From: a virus
DNA: 64,000 bases
Virus record (IMG/VR): IMGVR_UViG_3300024262_000019
Coordinates: 1-64,000 of that record
Direction: 5' to 3' (one strand)
Both the position numbers and the translations under genes were made by a program. The notes below the pieces were generated by a model. That model did not search any database. It had not been told where the DNA came from and saw nothing but the letters and a program-made list of their open reading frames with translations. Each line of letters starts with the position of its first letter. Position 1 is the stretch's first letter. Below are positions 56,795-64,000 of this stretch, one piece after another.

Positions 56795-58279
56795 TTATAG
56801 ACCAGTGAAGCTAACACGTCCATAATATTCTGACCTCAAGACCTTTTTTCCGTACCGAGTACGGAGACCTTTACGGAACGAAAAGTCCGCAGGGTCAAGG
56901 AAGGTAGGTGTCACCTGGAGTGGGATGTATGGAGCCCATACAAATCCAGCATCCAAGAAACTCGCACCCTTGAGGCCGATAAGCATCTTGTCCGACTCGA
57001 AGAACGGATCTTCGTAGACAACCCACTTATTCATCAGGGTACCCACTTTGTAGATACCGAACTGACCATGCTGCGTCAAAGGACGTGGCATGTCTGCTGG
57101 GCCGTATGGGCTTGCGCCGCCGGATACCCAGAGAGGGCGGAAGTCACCGTGCGTGGTGAGCTGAGCAATCCTCGCCGAGATCTCAGGAGAGGTCACGATG
57201 AAGTTAGCTGGAGCACGGAGCGTGTCCTTGTGGATAAGGTTCGAGACCTTGCTGATCGTGGTGATCATCGAGCGAAGGTGATCGATCTCGCTGATTCCAG
57301 CAGGCGGAGTCAAAGAGAACGTATCAGTTCGACCAGATGCCGAAGTCACGAACAGGTCATTGATGATCTCGCGATCGATCTCAAGAGCGATCTCCTGAGC
57401 GATACCCGAGACAAGCTCAGTCTCAGCGTCAAGGCCGTGGAAGGCCCGAAGGTCCTCTGCAGCTTCCGACGACCAAAGAGCCTTGAGGCGACGTGGAATC
57501 GCTTCGATGGGCTGCCTGGTGATGTCCAGGTTGACCTGAGGGATCTTGGTGTTCAGTTCGCCATCGTAGAAGTACCGAGCAACAATCTTGTTGCCAGTAG
57601 CAGGTGCGGCAGTGAATTTGAACGCGGTGACCGCGCCAGAGCCATAGTTGACTGCACCAGCAGCAACGTTTCCGGTGAAACCACCTGATCCGTTATCTGT
57701 GGCCGTCTGAATGGTGGTTCCAGTGGAATCTACGTCCAGAATCTGGAGGGAGAAGCCAAGGTCAGCATTCAAGGGACGGATTGGAGTCCAGGCAAGGACC
57801 GAAGCCATTGCCCCTCCAGCACCACCAAAGGCAGCACCATCACCGGTTCCAAGAGCCTCGTCACGAACGAACTCAGAAGAGTAGTCGCGATCGAAATCTC
57901 GTGGGAAGATGGCACCAGCTTGGGTCGCACCCTTGTTGGATCCATACTTGTAATCAAAGAAGAACACTGCACCAACTGGAGCTGTCATCGGCTGAACCGA
58001 CACAATCTCGTTGGCAATCAGGTTCGGGAAGACGCGCCGTAGCACTGGGAAGATGAACTTGGTGAAGGAACCAACGTTGATCGTTTTGGTCTCCTCTTCC
58101 AGGCCCTGTAACCACTGCGACTCATTTTCCATGAGCATAGCAGTGACACCCCGAGTGTATGGGTTGTCGATACCTTCGAGTAGCTCGCCCCACTTACCGA
58201 TAAGAGATTGAATAAACCCCTTGTCAGCAATGCTTCGACGGGACTCGTTCAAAACTAGTTGTCTCGCTTCCATCTTCAT
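56795..58279 (-). CDS. major capsid protein (T4 gp23-like)
   Basis: KW..LLEG, TA.L.EN, P..RRV.PNLIA.EIVSVQPM..P.G.VF, RRLKA.WS.E...DL.AFHGLDAE.EL......EI.LEIDREII, APYIPL, DP..F..RKG..TRY. Confidence 0.97.
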   Translation of the reverse strand: MKMEARQLVLNESRRSIADKGFIQSLIGKWGELLEGIDNPYTRGVTAMLMENESQWLQGLEEETKTINVGSFTKFIFPVLRRVFPNLIANEIVSVQPMTAPVGAVFFFDYKYGSNKGATQAGAIFPRDFDRDYSSEFVRDEALGTGDGAAFGGAGGAMASVLAWTPIRPLNADLGFSLQILDVDSTGTTIQTATDNGSGGFTGNVAAGAVNYGSGAVTAFKFTAAPATGNKIVARYFYDGELNTKIPQVNLDITRQPIEAIPRRLKALWSSEAAEDLRAFHGLDAETELVSGIAQEIALEIDREIINDLFVTSASGRTDTFSLTPPAGISEIDHLRSMITTISKVSNLIHKDTLRAPANFIVTSPEISARIAQLTTHGDFRPLWVSGGASPYGPADMPRPLTQHGQFGIYKVGTLMNKWVVYEDPFFESDKMLIGLKGASFLDAGFVWAPYIPLQVTPTFLDPADFSFRKGLRTRYGKKVLRSEYYGRVSFTGL

Positions 58280-58309: not shown

Positions 58310-59920
58310 TTAATTCTGAGAGTTGCCGTCGCCCGGCAGGCCAGAGAGAGCACGGATTTCAGACAGATTGGTTCCGAGCCCGTTATAATTTTGAGCGGAC
58401 ACACCGTGACCACCCGGACCGTTATTTGATTCCTCTTGGATGTACTCCACCGTTCCGCTGTTGAGGATCCCGCGAACGCGAGATCTAGCAGATTCCAGAT
58501 CCTCTGTCATTGAGGTCTTTGGATGAGAGTGCGCGAGGACGTTGTCTACTTCGCTTTTGCTTTGAGGCTGATGAGCCTCAACCAAACTACGGGCATAATC
58601 TGCCGAAGGATGATTAACCAGACGCTGCTCAAGATAGACCTGGGAAGCAAGATGCTTGCTGGCCTCAAGAGCTTTTTCAGTAATAATCTTCTGCTCAGCA
58701 AGCTGAGCCTCAAGCCTGGCATATCGCTCATCTGCCACAGACTCTTCGAATCTTTGAGATTCAAGCTCTTCTACGATGGAACCAATACGATCATCCATCT
58801 CACGAATATTGCTGTAGTTGGAGACATCTCCAACGAGGTCACGAACTAGATCTGCGCTATCGACACCATTGAGACGCTGCTCAAGATGGAACCTGTAACC
58901 AGCCTCGCGAGCGATAGAAGCTAGTTTATCGTTCTCAAGCTGGAGGTTTACGAGCTGAAGGTCTCTGTCTGCGATGACATTCTCAAGCTCTGCGATAATC
59001 TCTTCACGCTCTTGAACGAGGTGCTCTACATCCTCTGGGATGATGTAGGGACGGAGAACATCCTTAAGCTCACCAAGGGCCATCCTGGCACCGGCGACTG
59101 ATGGGTCATTCATGAGACGCTGAGTGATGGATGCTTCCATCTCCTTCTTTGCGTCATTGATTGCAGACTCAAGCTTTTCAGCGAACTCGGCACGAAGATC
59201 TGTAGATGCTTCTTGCTTTGCGCCAGTGATTTTTCTAGCCCAAATTTCAGCAGCCTTCTTCTCGTACTCACGCTCGGCGTCGTACATGAAGCTCTGAGCT
59301 AGTTCAGGATTGCTCTCTTTGAGTTCCTTTAAAGTAATGTTTTTTTCCATAGTAGCCTCCACGAAACCAGTAGTGTCATTGCCAGAATTAGCTGCAGTAT
59401 CCTCGACGTGAACTACTGGATATGCTGATTGTTGAGCTGGATCTGCGACAAAGTCGAAGGTCATAAGTCTGTAGTCATCTTGGACTACTGACTCGCCCTT
59501 CATGTTTGGCTTTGTAGTCCCAAATCCGCGAGAGGAGACTCCGACGGCTCCACCTGCGTCAAGGATGGCCTTAAGATTGCGTCCCTGGTCGGTATCTAGA
59601 ATGTGAGCAGTCCCGATGACAACGTCACCTTCTAGGTGAAGGTCACTGATAATGTGAGAAGTACGCTTGAGCTGAGTGCGACCGTCCATTGGATGATCTA
59701 ACTCGCCATATACTTTCATCTCTGAAAGCTGTTTACCAAGACGACCAAGCTCGCGCTCCCACAACTGATGGTTGTAGAGACGCTTGTTCTCCGTAGCCCT
59801 ATCTGCGCGAGCAAATTCGCCACGGGCAACATATTTGCCGGGTCCACCCTTAGACTCTTCGAGGGCGGTAGCCCTGAAGGTCATAGTGTCTATGAGTAGT
59901 TCTTTAACGGTTCCCGACAT
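58310..59920 (-). CDS. prohead protease (T4 gp21-like) fused to coiled-coil scaffold
   Basis: N.RLY, YGELDHP, SH.I..L, T..GR.LK.ILD.G..VGVSSRG.G, FDFVADP; long acidic coiled-coil C-terminal half. Confidence 0.92.
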   Translation of the reverse strand: MSGTVKELLIDTMTFRATALEESKGGPGKYVARGEFARADRATENKRLYNHQLWERELGRLGKQLSEMKVYGELDHPMDGRTQLKRTSHIISDLHLEGDVVIGTAHILDTDQGRNLKAILDAGGAVGVSSRGFGTTKPNMKGESVVQDDYRLMTFDFVADPAQQSAYPVVHVEDTAANSGNDTTGFVEATMEKNITLKELKESNPELAQSFMYDAEREYEKKAAEIWARKITGAKQEASTDLRAEFAEKLESAINDAKKEMEASITQRLMNDPSVAGARMALGELKDVLRPYIIPEDVEHLVQEREEIIAELENVIADRDLQLVNLQLENDKLASIAREAGYRFHLEQRLNGVDSADLVRDLVGDVSNYSNIREMDDRIGSIVEELESQRFEESVADERYARLEAQLAEQKIITEKALEASKHLASQVYLEQRLVNHPSADYARSLVEAHQPQSKSEVDNVLAHSHPKTSMTEDLESARSRVRGILNSGTVEYIQEESNNGPGGHGVSAQNYNGLGTNLSEIRALSGLPGDGNSQN

Positions 59921-60143
59921 ACTTACGTGGTCCTTTCCAAAATTTGAATGAATTAGCAGATCTGGCTATCTGTCGCTGTCCAACAGTGTTGTCCAACTCG
60001 ATTGCGTTATCTGGCTTCTTGATTCTGTTTTTTGGATTCGTCCTCGACTTTACTTCGTCACTATCCATCACTTTAGCCAGCCGACCAGAGGGGTAGAAGT
60101 CCCTATTCCCTCTGGTTCCCTCGGTGGCTATCTGCCGAAAGGG
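59904..60143 (-). CDS. candidate -1 frameshift extension of the 60128-61165 protein
   Basis: C CCT TTC heptamer (60143-60137), 6-nt spacer, hairpin 60130-60074; -1 frame open for 77 codons to TAA 59906-59904, filling the gap to the protease gene. Confidence 0.65.
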   Translation of the reverse strand, partial: PFRQIATEGTRGNRDFYPSGRLAKVMDSDEVKSRTNPKNRIKKPDNAIELDNTVGQRQIARSANSFKFWKGPRKYVGNR

Positions 60144-61165
60144 CCAGCGCTCCGTGCGTGGCGAAGAGATGCCAAGCGATCACTTACGCTTTCCTTCTGC
60201 TCCTTGCCCCGCTTGCCCCGTGGCTCATCATCGTCATCGTCGTCATCGTCATCGTCGTCATCGTCGGCTTCCATCATCTCTGAGATGGCTGCGTCATACG
60301 ACTCAACGGCATCCATGAGATCGAGCGTCATGAGACGGAAGGCGTCTTTAACGGCCTCCATAGTGTCATCATCGTCGTCATCGTCATCGTCGTCATCGTC
60401 GTCCTTCTTGCGAGATTTCATCTCAACAATATCGAAGGCTTCGGCGGCGCTGTCATAGAGAGACTCCATGGCTGCGTATACGTTCTCAACATCAAAATCA
60501 TCCGAGATTTCAACGAGACGCTCTGCAAGAAGAGCTGCGTTCTCTCCGAGGAGAGAGAAACCTCTTCCGAGGTTGTCACAGTCTTCGCTAACCTGTGAGC
60601 CGTGAACCAACGCATCAAGCTCTCCGATGAGCTGAGAAGCACGGTTGACGTAGGAAGATTCAGCCTTGCCCATGCCAGCAATCTTCTTGGTGGGAGTAAG
60701 CCCTTGAGCTACATCTGGGTCTTTCCCGCCGTCGTAGTTGCCACCCTTGTTCTTATCAACAAGACGGGCACGTAGCTGCTTGTATCCGTCTGGATACTCT
60801 GCTCTTACGTTGCCATCAACTCCCTCTCGGTAGTTGGGAGCCTTGTTGTATTTACCGGCACTCCTGCCACCCATCTTAGCGCCAGCGTCCAACGGATCAT
60901 CATGATCGTCAGAATCCCTTGGAGCGATGCGAGGACGTGGCTGCCTAGCGTACTTGTTACGCGCCTTAGCGTTGATGGAGCCTTCGCTGTCATCGTTGCC
61001 GGCAAGCGTGCTTGGATCTGGAGATGGGATATCTCGTGGATTACTGGAGTTGTCACCCTCGTAAAGTCCTTCGCTGGACTCAGTGAGTTGCTTCTCAGGA
61101 AGAAGTCCAATTGCTCGGAAGTCTTCTTCGATAGTGGTGAGTAGAACTGGATACCTGTGATTCAT
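60128..61165 (-). CDS. acidic putative prohead core/internal protein
   Basis: 345 aa, AGGAG RBS, between portal and protease; two poly-Asp tracts. Confidence 0.7.
   Translation of the reverse strand: MNHRYPVLLTTIEEDFRAIGLLPEKQLTESSEGLYEGDNSSNPRDIPSPDPSTLAGNDDSEGSINAKARNKYARQPRPRIAPRDSDDHDDPLDAGAKMGGRSAGKYNKAPNYREGVDGNVRAEYPDGYKQLRARLVDKNKGGNYDGGKDPDVAQGLTPTKKIAGMGKAESSYVNRASQLIGELDALVHGSQVSEDCDNLGRGFSLLGENAALLAERLVEISDDFDVENVYAAMESLYDSAAEAFDIVEMKSRKKDDDDDDDDDDDDDTMEAVKDAFRLMTLDLMDAVESYDAAISEMMEADDDDDDDDDDDDDEPRGKRGKEQKESVSDRLASLRHARSAGPFGR
60227..60403 (-). repeat. two (GAY)13 tracts encoding poly-Asp (60227-60265 and 60365-60403)
   Basis: mixed GAC/GAT codons, 13 in each tract. Confidence 0.9.
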
Positions 61166-61194: not shown

Positions 61195-62154
61195 CTAAAC
61201 GGCTCCGTCGAAAGCGCCGACCATACGCTCGATGAAACTAGTTGCCATCTCATAGCTAACCAGAGACTCGGCTATGGAGTCGTAAATGTGACCTAGGCAC
61301 ATTACGCACTGTTCGTTCACAAGAGCATCGGAAACGATTCCCCGAACTTCCTGCAGGTCTTCAATCAGATCTTCGGAGAAGAAACAAAAGTGAGATAAGA
61401 CATCCGCCTCATTCTCCTCCAGGTCACCATCTCCAACCGATTCTATAAACGGCAGATATGCCGCTTCAGCAGCATGATGAACCAACTCAAGACGCTCAAG
61501 CACGAGACCTAAGTCGGTCTCTGCGTTGTCTCGGTAGTTCTCAAATTGCTCTTCCGGTATTTCATCCGTCTCATACAATGGCTTGTACTTAGCCTCGAAT
61601 GAGTTTTCATGGATGGAACCAAGGACATCTACAATCTGCCTCTTGATCTCATCTTGCTGCTCCGCAAACACCTGTCGCCAAGGACGACCCTCGGAGAGAG
61701 CAGCAAGTGTCTCGCCAACATAATCCCTGGCCAACTCAGCCTGCGTCTGCTCTTGCAGACTAGCTAGCTGGAGGATCCTCTCAGCTGCGCCACCCACGCC
61801 TTCCGACATAAGTGAATCAACGATGCTTAGCGAGTAATCACGCATAGACCTAGCTGCGTTAGTGGAAGAAACCACCGGGACATCTAGTTGCGATAGCTCT
61901 CCAAAGACTATTGCGCCGTCCTTACTCTCGAACTTAGCCTCATAATAGGAACCTTCTGCTGTTCCAACTATGATCTTGTTCTTAAATGTAGCTACGCGAG
62001 CAATGTCCTCAGACCCATTGGTAAACAAATGACGGTTCTCACTAACAGCCTCGTCGAGGCGATGAGTGAGCTGTTCGTACGAGCCGCTTACCATCGCTCT
62101 GATGGCTTCGACTGGAACGATTTTGTCTTCTATGGAGAAAGGATTGTATGGCAT
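61195..62154 (-). CDS. acidic hypothetical head-module protein
   Basis: 319-aa ORF directly downstream of the portal gene. Confidence 0.7.
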   Translation of the reverse strand: MPYNPFSIEDKIVPVEAIRAMVSGSYEQLTHRLDEAVSENRHLFTNGSEDIARVATFKNKIIVGTAEGSYYEAKFESKDGAIVFGELSQLDVPVVSSTNAARSMRDYSLSIVDSLMSEGVGGAAERILQLASLQEQTQAELARDYVGETLAALSEGRPWRQVFAEQQDEIKRQIVDVLGSIHENSFEAKYKPLYETDEIPEEQFENYRDNAETDLGLVLERLELVHHAAEAAYLPFIESVGDGDLEENEADVLSHFCFFSEDLIEDLQEVRGIVSDALVNEQCVMCLGHIYDSIAESLVSYEMATSFIERMVGAFDGAV

Positions 62155-62236: not shown

Positions 62237-64000
62237 TCATCTTCCTGGCATGCCCATCTTTATCTCATTGATAAGCTGCCCTAACTCACCAAGACGCCTG
62301 GCTGTTTCATTGTTGGCGCCCATAATCGTATCTAGGTTGTCCTCAACCATTTTTTCGTGATCACGGTTTCCTTGGAATAATTCCTTCTCAGTTATTGGCC
62401 TATATCCGAGTTGCTGTCTCATTTGTGGCCATCTGCTGGACAGACCCCCAGCAGTACGTATTGAATGACGTAGATCTTCGGCAGCCTGAGTACTTCCACC
62501 CATCACTCCTGCCATTTGTTGCTGAGCTGCAGCTTGTTGGGTTTGGATCTCAGCTTGGGCAGCCTGCTGTTGGATCTGTCCCTGGTTTTGAACATCCATT
62601 TGCAGACCCATCGCCCTTGCCTGAATCTCTGCATCACTCAACTGCTCCTGGTGACGCTCTTTGATGATGTATTCGATCTCTTCTTCGCTAAGTCCAAATA
62701 CTTTCTGGAGAATCCAATGCAGAGAGACGAACTGCTGCATTCGCCCGGCGAAGTCTGCCTTGGCATTCCTGACCTCTAGCTGAGCAAGTTCGAAAATCGA
62801 ACTCGGCGTCGTCATGCAGATTTCAAAATCGACTGCGGCTGGATTGATATTCAGAGCAGCCAGGTGAACCCTGGCCATCTTCTTCATCCCGTTCCTCAGT
62901 TCGCGCTGTAAACGAAGGACAGTACGGGCAAATCGCACATCCTCCTGAGACAGCACACCCTTGGCACGCGGAGCCTCCGACCCAAGATAGACCTTGGGCA
63001 CCTTGATAGCCGCGTAGAGCTTCAGCTTGAAGTACTCGATATCCTCCATGTGCTGCCACGACGGGCTGCCCACGACATCGATTTTGGTCTGCTGCACACC
63101 CTTGCGAACAGGGACGAAGAAGTCCTCATCCTGTGACAGGGGATTATATTTCAGATCAAGCTTGCCGGTCTGGGGATTATAGAACTTGGTCTTCTTGTAC
63201 TGCTGACGGATCTTATGCAGGAATGCCATTGCCTCTTTTGGCGGCATATCTCCGACATCTATATAGAAAGCATACCGCTGAGGGGCTCGCTGCAGCCTGT
63301 AAACCATGGCCGCATCCTCAAGAAGCATAAGCCTCTTCCAGATCCACCTGGCCGGCTCAAGCATCGAGTAACCGTAGATAGACCTACGATGCCTGGAGCG
63401 CATCCGGAAGTGTGCAACCTCCCAATCCTCCAGGGCGGCGTACTTATCCTGCGTCTGAGACCCAGCACCAGCCATGCGTTGCGTCAGAAGTTGCTTAAAC
63501 TCATCCGGGCTGTACCCGAACCTGCCCTTGTAATCCTGGACAAACCCAAATAGCTCGCCTCGACGACCTTCGATTCGTCGCATCGTAGGTGGTGGCAAGA
63601 AGTTCAAGCCAACCAACCCGTCCTGCGTAACCAGAAGCTCTTCGTAGTCGTTTCCGTACTTTACTAAGGTTCTGGCTATCTCCCAGATTTCCTCATCCAT
63701 ACGAAGCCTACGCCAAAACAGATCTTCTAGAATCGTCTGGACTGTCTTGTCTGGACTGTCAATCCAGACCGCCCTGTTCTGCAAGGACTCCGTCTGAGTG
63801 GCGTCATCGGCATATATGTCAATAGCACTGTTATGAACAACAACTCCGTTACATACGAAGTTGTGATACCCAGGCACCTCCAGGTCAAAAACCTCAGGTC
63901 GCTCATCCAGCTCCTCAACCCTAACCACTCTGTGGTTATTATCGTCCTCGATCAGGTCATACCTGTCCAGGTTGCGCCTAGCGGTGCTCCATGAAACGTC
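62237..64000 (-). CDS. portal protein (T4 gp20-like), 5'-partial, intein-containing
   Basis: SAIDIYADD, YG.SMLEPAR.IWK.L.LLEDA..VYRL.RAP.R..FYIDVGDMP, Y.PLS..EDFF.P.R, EDIEYF..KL..A.KVP; frame open to the window end. Confidence 0.95.
   Translation of the reverse strand, partial: DVSWSTARRNLDRYDLIEDDNNHRVVRVEELDERPEVFDLEVPGYHNFVCNGVVVHNSAIDIYADDATQTESLQNRAVWIDSPDKTVQTILEDLFWRRLRMDEEIWEIARTLVKYGNDYEELLVTQDGLVGLNFLPPPTMRRIEGRRGELFGFVQDYKGRFGYSPDEFKQLLTQRMAGAGSQTQDKYAALEDWEVAHFRMRSRHRRSIYGYSMLEPARWIWKRLMLLEDAAMVYRLQRAPQRYAFYIDVGDMPPKEAMAFLHKIRQQYKKTKFYNPQTGKLDLKYNPLSQDEDFFVPVRKGVQQTKIDVVGSPSWQHMEDIEYFKLKLYAAIKVPKVYLGSEAPRAKGVLSQEDVRFARTVLRLQRELRNGMKKMARVHLAALNINPAAVDFEICMTTPSSIFELAQLEVRNAKADFAGRMQQFVSLHWILQKVFGLSEEEIEYIIKERHQEQLSDAEIQARAMGLQMDVQNQGQIQQQAAQAEIQTQQAAAQQQMAGVMGGSTQAAEDLRHSIRTAGGLSSRWPQMRQQLGYRPITEKELFQGNRDHEKMVEDNLDTIMGANNETARRLGELGQLINEIKMGMPGR
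63830..64000 (-). mobile_element. C-terminal end of an intein in the portal gene
   Basis: NHRVVRVE....EVFDLEVPGYHNFVCNGVVVHN followed by Ser+1. Confidence 0.92.

Follow-up and report, generated by a model that had tools for sequence, protein, structure and literature searches.

A probable programmed -1 ribosomal frameshift site, conserved among relatives, near the end of an acidic head-module gene of a T4-like virus

Introduction

Phage T7 produces its capsid proteins 10A and 10B by a -1 frameshift near the end of head gene 10, and capsid and tail tube genes make up a handful of the known phage frameshifts. Of the 2476 annotated phage frameshifts in the PRFect data set, 2397 belong to tail assembly chaperones (PMC10885494). 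This study concerns the head module of an uncultivated T4-like virus from the IMG/VR record IMGVR_UViG_3300024262_000019 (110 kb in total), of which positions 1-64,000 were analysed and are referred to as the window. Near the end of an acidic gene of this module lies what is very probably a programmed -1 ribosomal frameshift site, conserved across relatives.

As in T7 gene 10, the ribosomes would slip with only a few codons of a head-module gene left, by X XXY YYZ-type slippage involving the Phe tRNA, and the predicted result is a minor, C-terminally extended isoform. In T7 the shift takes place in the major capsid protein, whereas here it concerns an acidic, probably internal, core protein, and the added part is a conserved basic peptide which exists as a free-standing gene in some relatives. 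Another parallel is the G/GT tail chaperone of lambda and other long-tailed phages, whose -1 shift is kept by position and not by sequence across very divergent phages. The heptamers are interchangeable in both systems (lambda G GGA AAG; here G GGA AAC, G GGA AAA or G GGA AAG), and in both two products would come from overlapping frames, at a fixed ratio presumed to be essential. Unlike G/GT, to which it has no homology, the present site belongs to the head module and not to the tail module, and its extension is short (about 77 aa), basic and predicted to be disordered. Furthermore, a heptamer, a stem-loop about 6 nt downstream and possibly an upstream Shine-Dalgarno (SD)-like element (here GGAG) are found in E. 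coli dnaX (tau/gamma), too, where the heptamer differs and the shift truncates the protein instead of extending it.

With T4 gp67, gp68 and IPI-III the gene shares the place between portal and protease, the extreme charge and the vicinity of a Glu-cutting protease, but no detectable sequence similarity. The internal proteins of T4 are targeted by an N-terminal peptide (capsid-targeting sequences) and not by a C-terminal trans-frame fusion, and T4 is not known to use recoding at this place. Full-text literature searches did not turn up recoding in any prohead core or scaffold-region gene of T4-like phages. Canonical -1 frameshifting is a known mechanism; the gene context is apparently new and the recoding site apparently undescribed.

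Results and Discussion

The shift signal and the extension in the window

The 345-aa acidic open reading frame (ORF) ends with GGC CCT TTC GGC AGA TAG, and its short product (37.9 kDa) terminates with ...SAGPFGR at the TAG at 60130-60128 (Table 1). On the heptamer C CCT TTC both tRNAs can re-pair after a slip of one base, Pro from CCU to CCC and Phe from UUC to UUU. Six nucleotides downstream begins the closed structure UAGCCACCG..ACCAGAGGG..CCCUCUGGUCGG.UGGCUA, which is present in the centroid fold as well. The -1 frame begins with RQIATEG, reads RQIATEGTRGNRDFYPSGR...KYVGNR and extends 16 nt into the protease ORF, the ATG of which is at 59920. A trans-frame product would comprise residues 1-343 of the acidic protein and 77 further residues, 420 aa or 46.5 kDa in total. 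The added tail contains 18 K/R against 8 D/E and has a pI of 10.7, compared to 4.3 for the body of the carrier. AlphaFold2 gave a pLDDT of 57 and no secondary structure for the tail, which is thus predicted to be disordered.

An earlier sequence-only reading of this DNA had proposed such a signal. The in-phase heptamer and its 6-nt spacer, the long hairpin behind them, the open -1 frame of 77 codons that fills the otherwise empty gap of 207 nt before the protease gene and stops just inside it, and the addition of an Arg/Lys-rich extension to a poly-acidic protein were all found as that reading had described them.

Table 1. Coordinates of the putative recoding signal, its neighbouring genes and related sites in other lineages
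Feature	Position	Strand	Remark
Slippery heptamer C CCT TTC	60137-60143	minus	in phase as X XXY YYZ
6-nt spacer GGCAGA (last two zero-frame codons, Gly-Arg)	60131-60136	minus	
Imperfect stem-loop, 57 nt, putative frameshift stimulator, starting at the zero-frame TAG	60074-60130	minus	-29.1 kcal/mol
GGAG, possible internal SD-like stimulator	60150-60153	minus	6 nt upstream of the heptamer
-1 frame extension, 77 codons + TAA	59904-60137	minus	stop TAA 59906-59904
Zero-frame acidic ORF, 345 aa	60128-61165	minus	two poly-Asp tracts, pI 4.3
319-aa ORF between portal and acidic gene	61195-62154	minus	without Pfam or PHROG family
Portal (gp20-like) with intein	62237-64000	minus	Portal_T4 4.5e-70
gp21-like prohead protease fused to scaffold-like C-terminal part, 536 aa	58310-59920	minus	Peptidase_S77 2.5e-16, phrog_207 6.5e-47
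gp23-like major capsid protein	56795-58279	minus	Gp23
Single in-phase C.CCT, no canonical heptamer	L003:3583-3592, L005:3759-3768, L041, L045, L046, L049, L058, L059		

Purine runs resembling the GGAG of the window (GGAG, GAGG or AAGGG-like) occur at a similar place in L001, L002, L007, L027 and L028; they encode conserved residues at the same time. Contigs of three metagenome runs span positions 59889-60201 with zero insertions or deletions. They carry a natural variant, 60111 T>C, which changes an A:U to a G.U pair in the stem and is synonymous in the -1 frame. In a sediment metatranscriptome, two RNA contigs of low depth cover 59756-60042; neither spans the shift site, and they have no bearing on transcription or slippage.

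Conservation of the -1 frame among relatives

The protease was used as query both on its own and in the form of an alignment, and 22 loci with 30-92% protease identity were usable. Wherever these reach far enough upstream, an open -1 frame begins before the acidic ORF ends and continues up to the protease start, L021 being the sole exception. The motif RR[TSN]AYxSGR[KR] brought 56 further viral contigs. After removal of duplicates and clustering at 80% peptide identity there were 43 lineages, including the two clades nearest to the window. In 39 of them the homologous peptide is offset by -1 from the upstream ORF, which is mostly acidic in these lineages and mostly carries a poly-D/E tail. The alignment of homologous loci thus revealed an open, protein-constrained -1 frame, as the sequence-only reading implied.

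The peptides can be aligned starting with the residue directly behind the shift site, and follow the pattern ..EE.R.RRTAY.SGR.E ... K/R-rich ... F.G.FRW. Thereby E6, R12, S17-G18-R19 and R59 are invariant, and E6, R12, Y15 and S17-G18-R19 are the best conserved residues of the whole peptide. The motif is still kept in L024, the protease of which is only 30% identical. The stop of the extension lies within 5 nt of the protease start, or overlaps it, in 37 of 42 lineages.

In the window (59921-59945, minus strand) and at equivalent sites in relatives, the codons of the conserved F-R-W of the tail (e.g. TTC AGG TGG, CGA TGG AG) resemble SD sequences and are located about 9-12 nt ahead of the protease ATG. 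Some of the apparent protein conservation of the tail may therefore reflect the ribosome-binding site of the protease.

Substitutions in the -1 frame point to selection at the protein level. According to the Nei-Gojobori method, pS amounts to 0.6-0.8 and pN to 0.1-0.27. The first 27 alignment columns after the shift site, upstream of any candidate internal start, exhibit the same pattern, with pS/pN values of e.g. 0.83/0.08 for L002-L012 and 0.75/0.06 for L007-L039. The median pN/pS is 0.26 in the -1 frame; if the same nucleotide alignment is divided into codons in the two remaining frames, it is 1.25 and 1.71. Being based on peptides, the alignment favours the -1 frame somewhat, but neither the size of this contrast nor the stop counts depend on this. 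Every lineage examined has zero stops in the -1 frame, and 2-9 in the other frames.

This frame often lacks a start of its own. In 28 lineages it is devoid of ATG, GTG and TTG as far as the conserved motif. In the window the -1 frame opens at 60179 and contains none of them as far as 60072, and in L003 a canonical start is absent until the last eight codons. GTG 60071 and ATG 60068, the first candidates in the window, both follow the invariant Y.SGR, at the foot of the hairpin. Neither is preceded by an SD sequence; the acidic ORF has AGGAG (7 nt ahead of its ATG) and the capsid gene GGAGG. At the position of this start there is CTG in L003 and L005, ACA in L002 and GTA in L039. The possibility that the frame owns a conserved ribosome-binding site and start near 60071, which the sequence-only reading had named as the finding that would speak against a shift, thus does not agree with the data: an SD sequence is missing, many relatives lack the start, and the best-conserved residues are located upstream of it.

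A profile of the tail alignment was searched against 1.84 billion representative proteins and retrieved only 12, all of them 55-79 aa long. This low number indicates that gene callers seldom call the frame, which fits its lack of a start. Since gene callers miss the peptide (12 representative proteins, more than 50 loci), the annotation of a large group of environmental phages is incomplete at this locus. PHROGs and Pfam, searched with the tail and with its stand-alone relatives, gave no matching family; the tail had no usable match in the ESM Atlas, and tblastn with a typical tail peptide had no match among 50,697 phage records.

Slippery sequences and downstream structures

In 25 lineages, an X XXY YYZ heptamer lies in phase no more than 45 nt from the stop of the zero frame. 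The sequences seen were C CCU UUC/U/G, G GGA AAC, G GGA AAA, G GGA AAG, A AAA AAG and A AAA AAC. C CCU UUC/U/G is typical for the wider clade of the window; G GGA AAC is the heptamer of most others, usually 0-3 nt before the stop; in L024 and L064 it is directly followed by TGA. CCCTTTC, CCCTTTT or CCCTTTG is located 6 nt before the stop in L001, L002, L007, L010, L012, L018, L023, L027, L028, L029 and L039. In-phase heptamers occupy 31 of 429 codon positions (7.2%) in the last 30 nt, compared to 21 of 12,237 (0.17%) elsewhere in the same ORFs, and the other two phases of the same end region contain 2 and 1 heptamers. Homologues thus keep either the same in-phase heptamer or another canonical one at the same place, in line with the sequence-only reading. 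Different slippery sequences at the same functional place fit selection for slippage, whereas conservation of the protein motif alone would give no reason to expect them.

A canonical heptamer is missing in 11 of the -1 lineages. Eight of these 11 contain exactly one in-phase C.CCT in the overlap (Table 1), as C CCU ACC (in L005 and L059), AUC, UCC, UCU or CAG, the background being 13 in 10,611 codons. A start codon is absent from six of the eight. The bare C.CCT may be a minimal -1 slip site for a single tRNA(Pro), and these eight lineages suggest that slippage of the Pro tRNA alone may suffice.

Nearly every locus with a heptamer shows a closed structure beginning 4-10 nt downstream. For the 25 lineages, the best closed structure at this distance has a median of -21.6 kcal/mol, compared to -13.4 kcal/mol at control positions chosen at random in the same upstream ORFs (Mann-Whitney p = 3.5e-8). 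The structures vary by clade. The L007 clade forms GGGCUC/GAGCCC at a distance of 8 nt and, behind it, another stem that contains two compensatory pairs, and L002 and L012 have their own local hairpin CUUCCGA/UCGGAAG in place of that of the window. The long hairpin of the window is common only to its closest relatives, L010 and L001, and here one pair is changed in a compensatory manner from A:U to C:G, both halves being synonymous in the -1 frame (AGA to CGA, TCT to TCG). What is retained among homologues is a downstream structure; the specific hairpin from which the sequence-only reading had started is confined to the nearest ones.

Stand-alone and +1 arrangements

In L061, L074 and L076 an ATGA or GTGA start-stop overlap makes the peptide an ordinary coupled small gene, an arrangement that also gives a -1 relation. 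Four lineages (L021, L081, L091, L093) have the peptide in the +1 frame. L081, L091 and L093 possess a start of their own shortly before the motif; in L021 the nearest start is 58 codons upstream and the sequence G GGA AAA G is present. Judged from these arrangements, the peptide is a module that can also be made alone, and frameshift and overlap arrangements seem to interconvert.

In L021 (534-560; protease 49% identical) the peptide follows in the +1 frame after G GGA AAA GGC, and a -1 slip at this site would reach a stop after four codons. The ribosomes might shift by +1 or -2 in L021, or the assembly might be wrong at a homopolymer.

Alternative explanations

The most serious alternative is that the gap of 207 nt contains a separate gene of 54-55 aa, translated from GTG 60071 or ATG 60068, or from a non-canonical codon at which ribosomes reinitiate behind the TAG. 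An ORF does exist at 59904-60071, gene callers have predicted short proteins elsewhere (P0002 begins with MAFGLEPRD), and some distant lineages have a stand-alone gene, whose ATGA or GTGA overlap yields the -1 relation as well. Such a gene would, however, have to start without SD sequence at the foot of a hairpin, at a position not conserved in relatives, and the invariant E, R and S-G-R are encoded in the 23 codons upstream of this start, where pN is much lower than pS. For a start near the TAG the -1 frame offers no ATG, GTG or TTG, and a 40-fold enrichment of in-phase slippery heptamers would not be expected. We therefore regard a separate gene as unlikely in the window. Much less probable still is a non-coding gap, i.e. 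a spacer with a regulatory, terminator-like or processing hairpin in which the open frame and the heptamer occur by chance. The peptide belongs to no known family and has no predicted fold, and the hairpin alone is not significant against shuffled sequences, as this explanation would have it. But the coding evidence contradicts it: the substitutions are frame-specific (pN/pS 0.26 against more than 1.2), stops are confined to the other frames, and the peptide motif persists even in L024; nor is the hairpin followed by a T-run. Improbable to the same degree is that one gene of 420 aa has been split by an indel from assembly or sequencing, or by a pseudogenising frameshift of recent origin. The window is a metagenome-derived contig, and a comparison with an in-frame version is impossible because none is available. 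Yet the same -1 offset recurs in 39 independently assembled lineages with different nucleotide sequences, the contigs of three metagenome runs are free of indels across the site, and the 1.84 billion representatives include no fused protein. Two further mechanisms were rejected. Read-through of a recoded TAG does not fit the -1 frame being the conserved one, and at this stop the relatives have any of TAA, TAG and TGA; transcriptional slippage would need a homopolymer run, which is missing.

Several observations weigh against a programmed frameshift. The absence of an in-frame fused homologue means that nothing of this kind proves that both parts act as one chain, and the stand-alone genes of a few distant lineages indicate that covalent fusion is not obligatory for the function of the peptide. 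The 91-nt fold of the window has a z-score of only -1.46 against dinucleotide shuffles, 17 of 200 of which fold equally well. On the single sequence the hairpin is therefore not beyond chance, and the case for more than chance comes from the relatives. Covariation of the hairpin is thin, too, with one compensatory pair among five sequences, and the nearer sister clade (L002, L012) has C CCU UUG, with weaker A-site re-pairing and a different hairpin. Weighing all this, we consider a programmed -1 frameshift to be very likely, and from the sequence features described above we infer that slippage does occur at C CCU UUC.

Proposed mechanism and function

Most ribosomes translating the acidic 345-aa protein would stop at the TAG. 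A fraction would pause over C CCU UUC because of the stem-loop 6 nt downstream, slip one base back, with Pro moving from CCU to CCC and Phe from UUC to UUU, and read 77 more codons in the -1 frame. The outcome would be a 420-aa isoform consisting of the acidic body and a presumably disordered Arg/Lys-rich tail.

In the sequence-only reading, the two isoforms would be made at a set ratio and the extension could bind DNA or the portal. According to the simplest model, the acidic carrier would bring this tail into the prohead at a fixed low dose. The family of the neighbouring protease cleaves after Glu. An invariant Glu is found 6 residues past the shift site, with [SAG]-x-E motifs further on, and the protease may cut the tail off. 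In most lineages the extension ends on the protease start, so that the protease dose, too, may be set with the help of frameshifting ribosomes. Taken as one joint proposal, in which the frameshift serves to deliver and dose the basic 'RRTAY.SGR...FRW' peptide in the prohead, the protease releases it, the lineages with a bare C CCU keep its expression and the protease dose is affected as well, this remains tentative and is rather unlikely to hold in all its parts.

If the frameshift is real, a head-assembly gene (core/scaffold region) of the T4-like phages joins the known phage frameshift genes. The lineages would then form an unusually rich natural series, in which recoding has been kept with at least six slippery sequences and elsewhere a bare C CCU or an ATGA-coupled gene is used instead. 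This would be a good system for studying the evolution of frameshift sites, their interconversion with overlapping genes and the dosage of disordered proteins of opposite charge in the procapsid.

Genomic context

The window contains a T4-type head module on the minus strand (56.8-64 kb). The 345-aa gene lies between the genes for portal (gp20) and prohead protease (gp21), as gp67/gp68 do in T4, and its homologues are conserved and syntenic in all related loci. The designation as a head-core gene in the sequence-only reading is therefore backed by position; homology to T4 gp67/gp68 was not detected with Pfam or PHROGs, where the ORF had nothing except a low-complexity match. Neither this ORF nor the 319-aa ORF matched a Pfam or PHROG head-core family at E <= 0.01. 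The acidic ORF had no usable match in the ESM Atlas and no tblastn match among the 50,697 phage records, and blastn of the locus against the same records gave no match either. A close cultured phage relative was not found in these records: the only relatives of the protease, among cyanophages and PA5oct-like phages, do not exceed 35% identity (over the catalytic part).

The poly-Asp tracts of the acidic ORF (GAT/GAC repeats, 60220-60405) attract hundreds of unrelated metagenome contigs. Due to such cross-matches from other organisms, depth at 60220-60405 is meaningless and many joints are false.

The 319-aa ORF is kept in all relatives and has the C-terminus ...EQCVMCLG.IYDSIAESL..YE.A..F.ERMV. 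The gp20-like portal gene is interrupted by an intein, whose Intein_splicing domain ends with ...VVHN|S right before the Portal_T4 match restarts; the N-terminal part of this gene extends beyond the edge of the window. Outside the window, the same virus record contains a second short protease-like stretch with an internal TAG (G000:C1:108128-108409, plus strand; L009), which is 35% identical to residues 71-169 of the protease.

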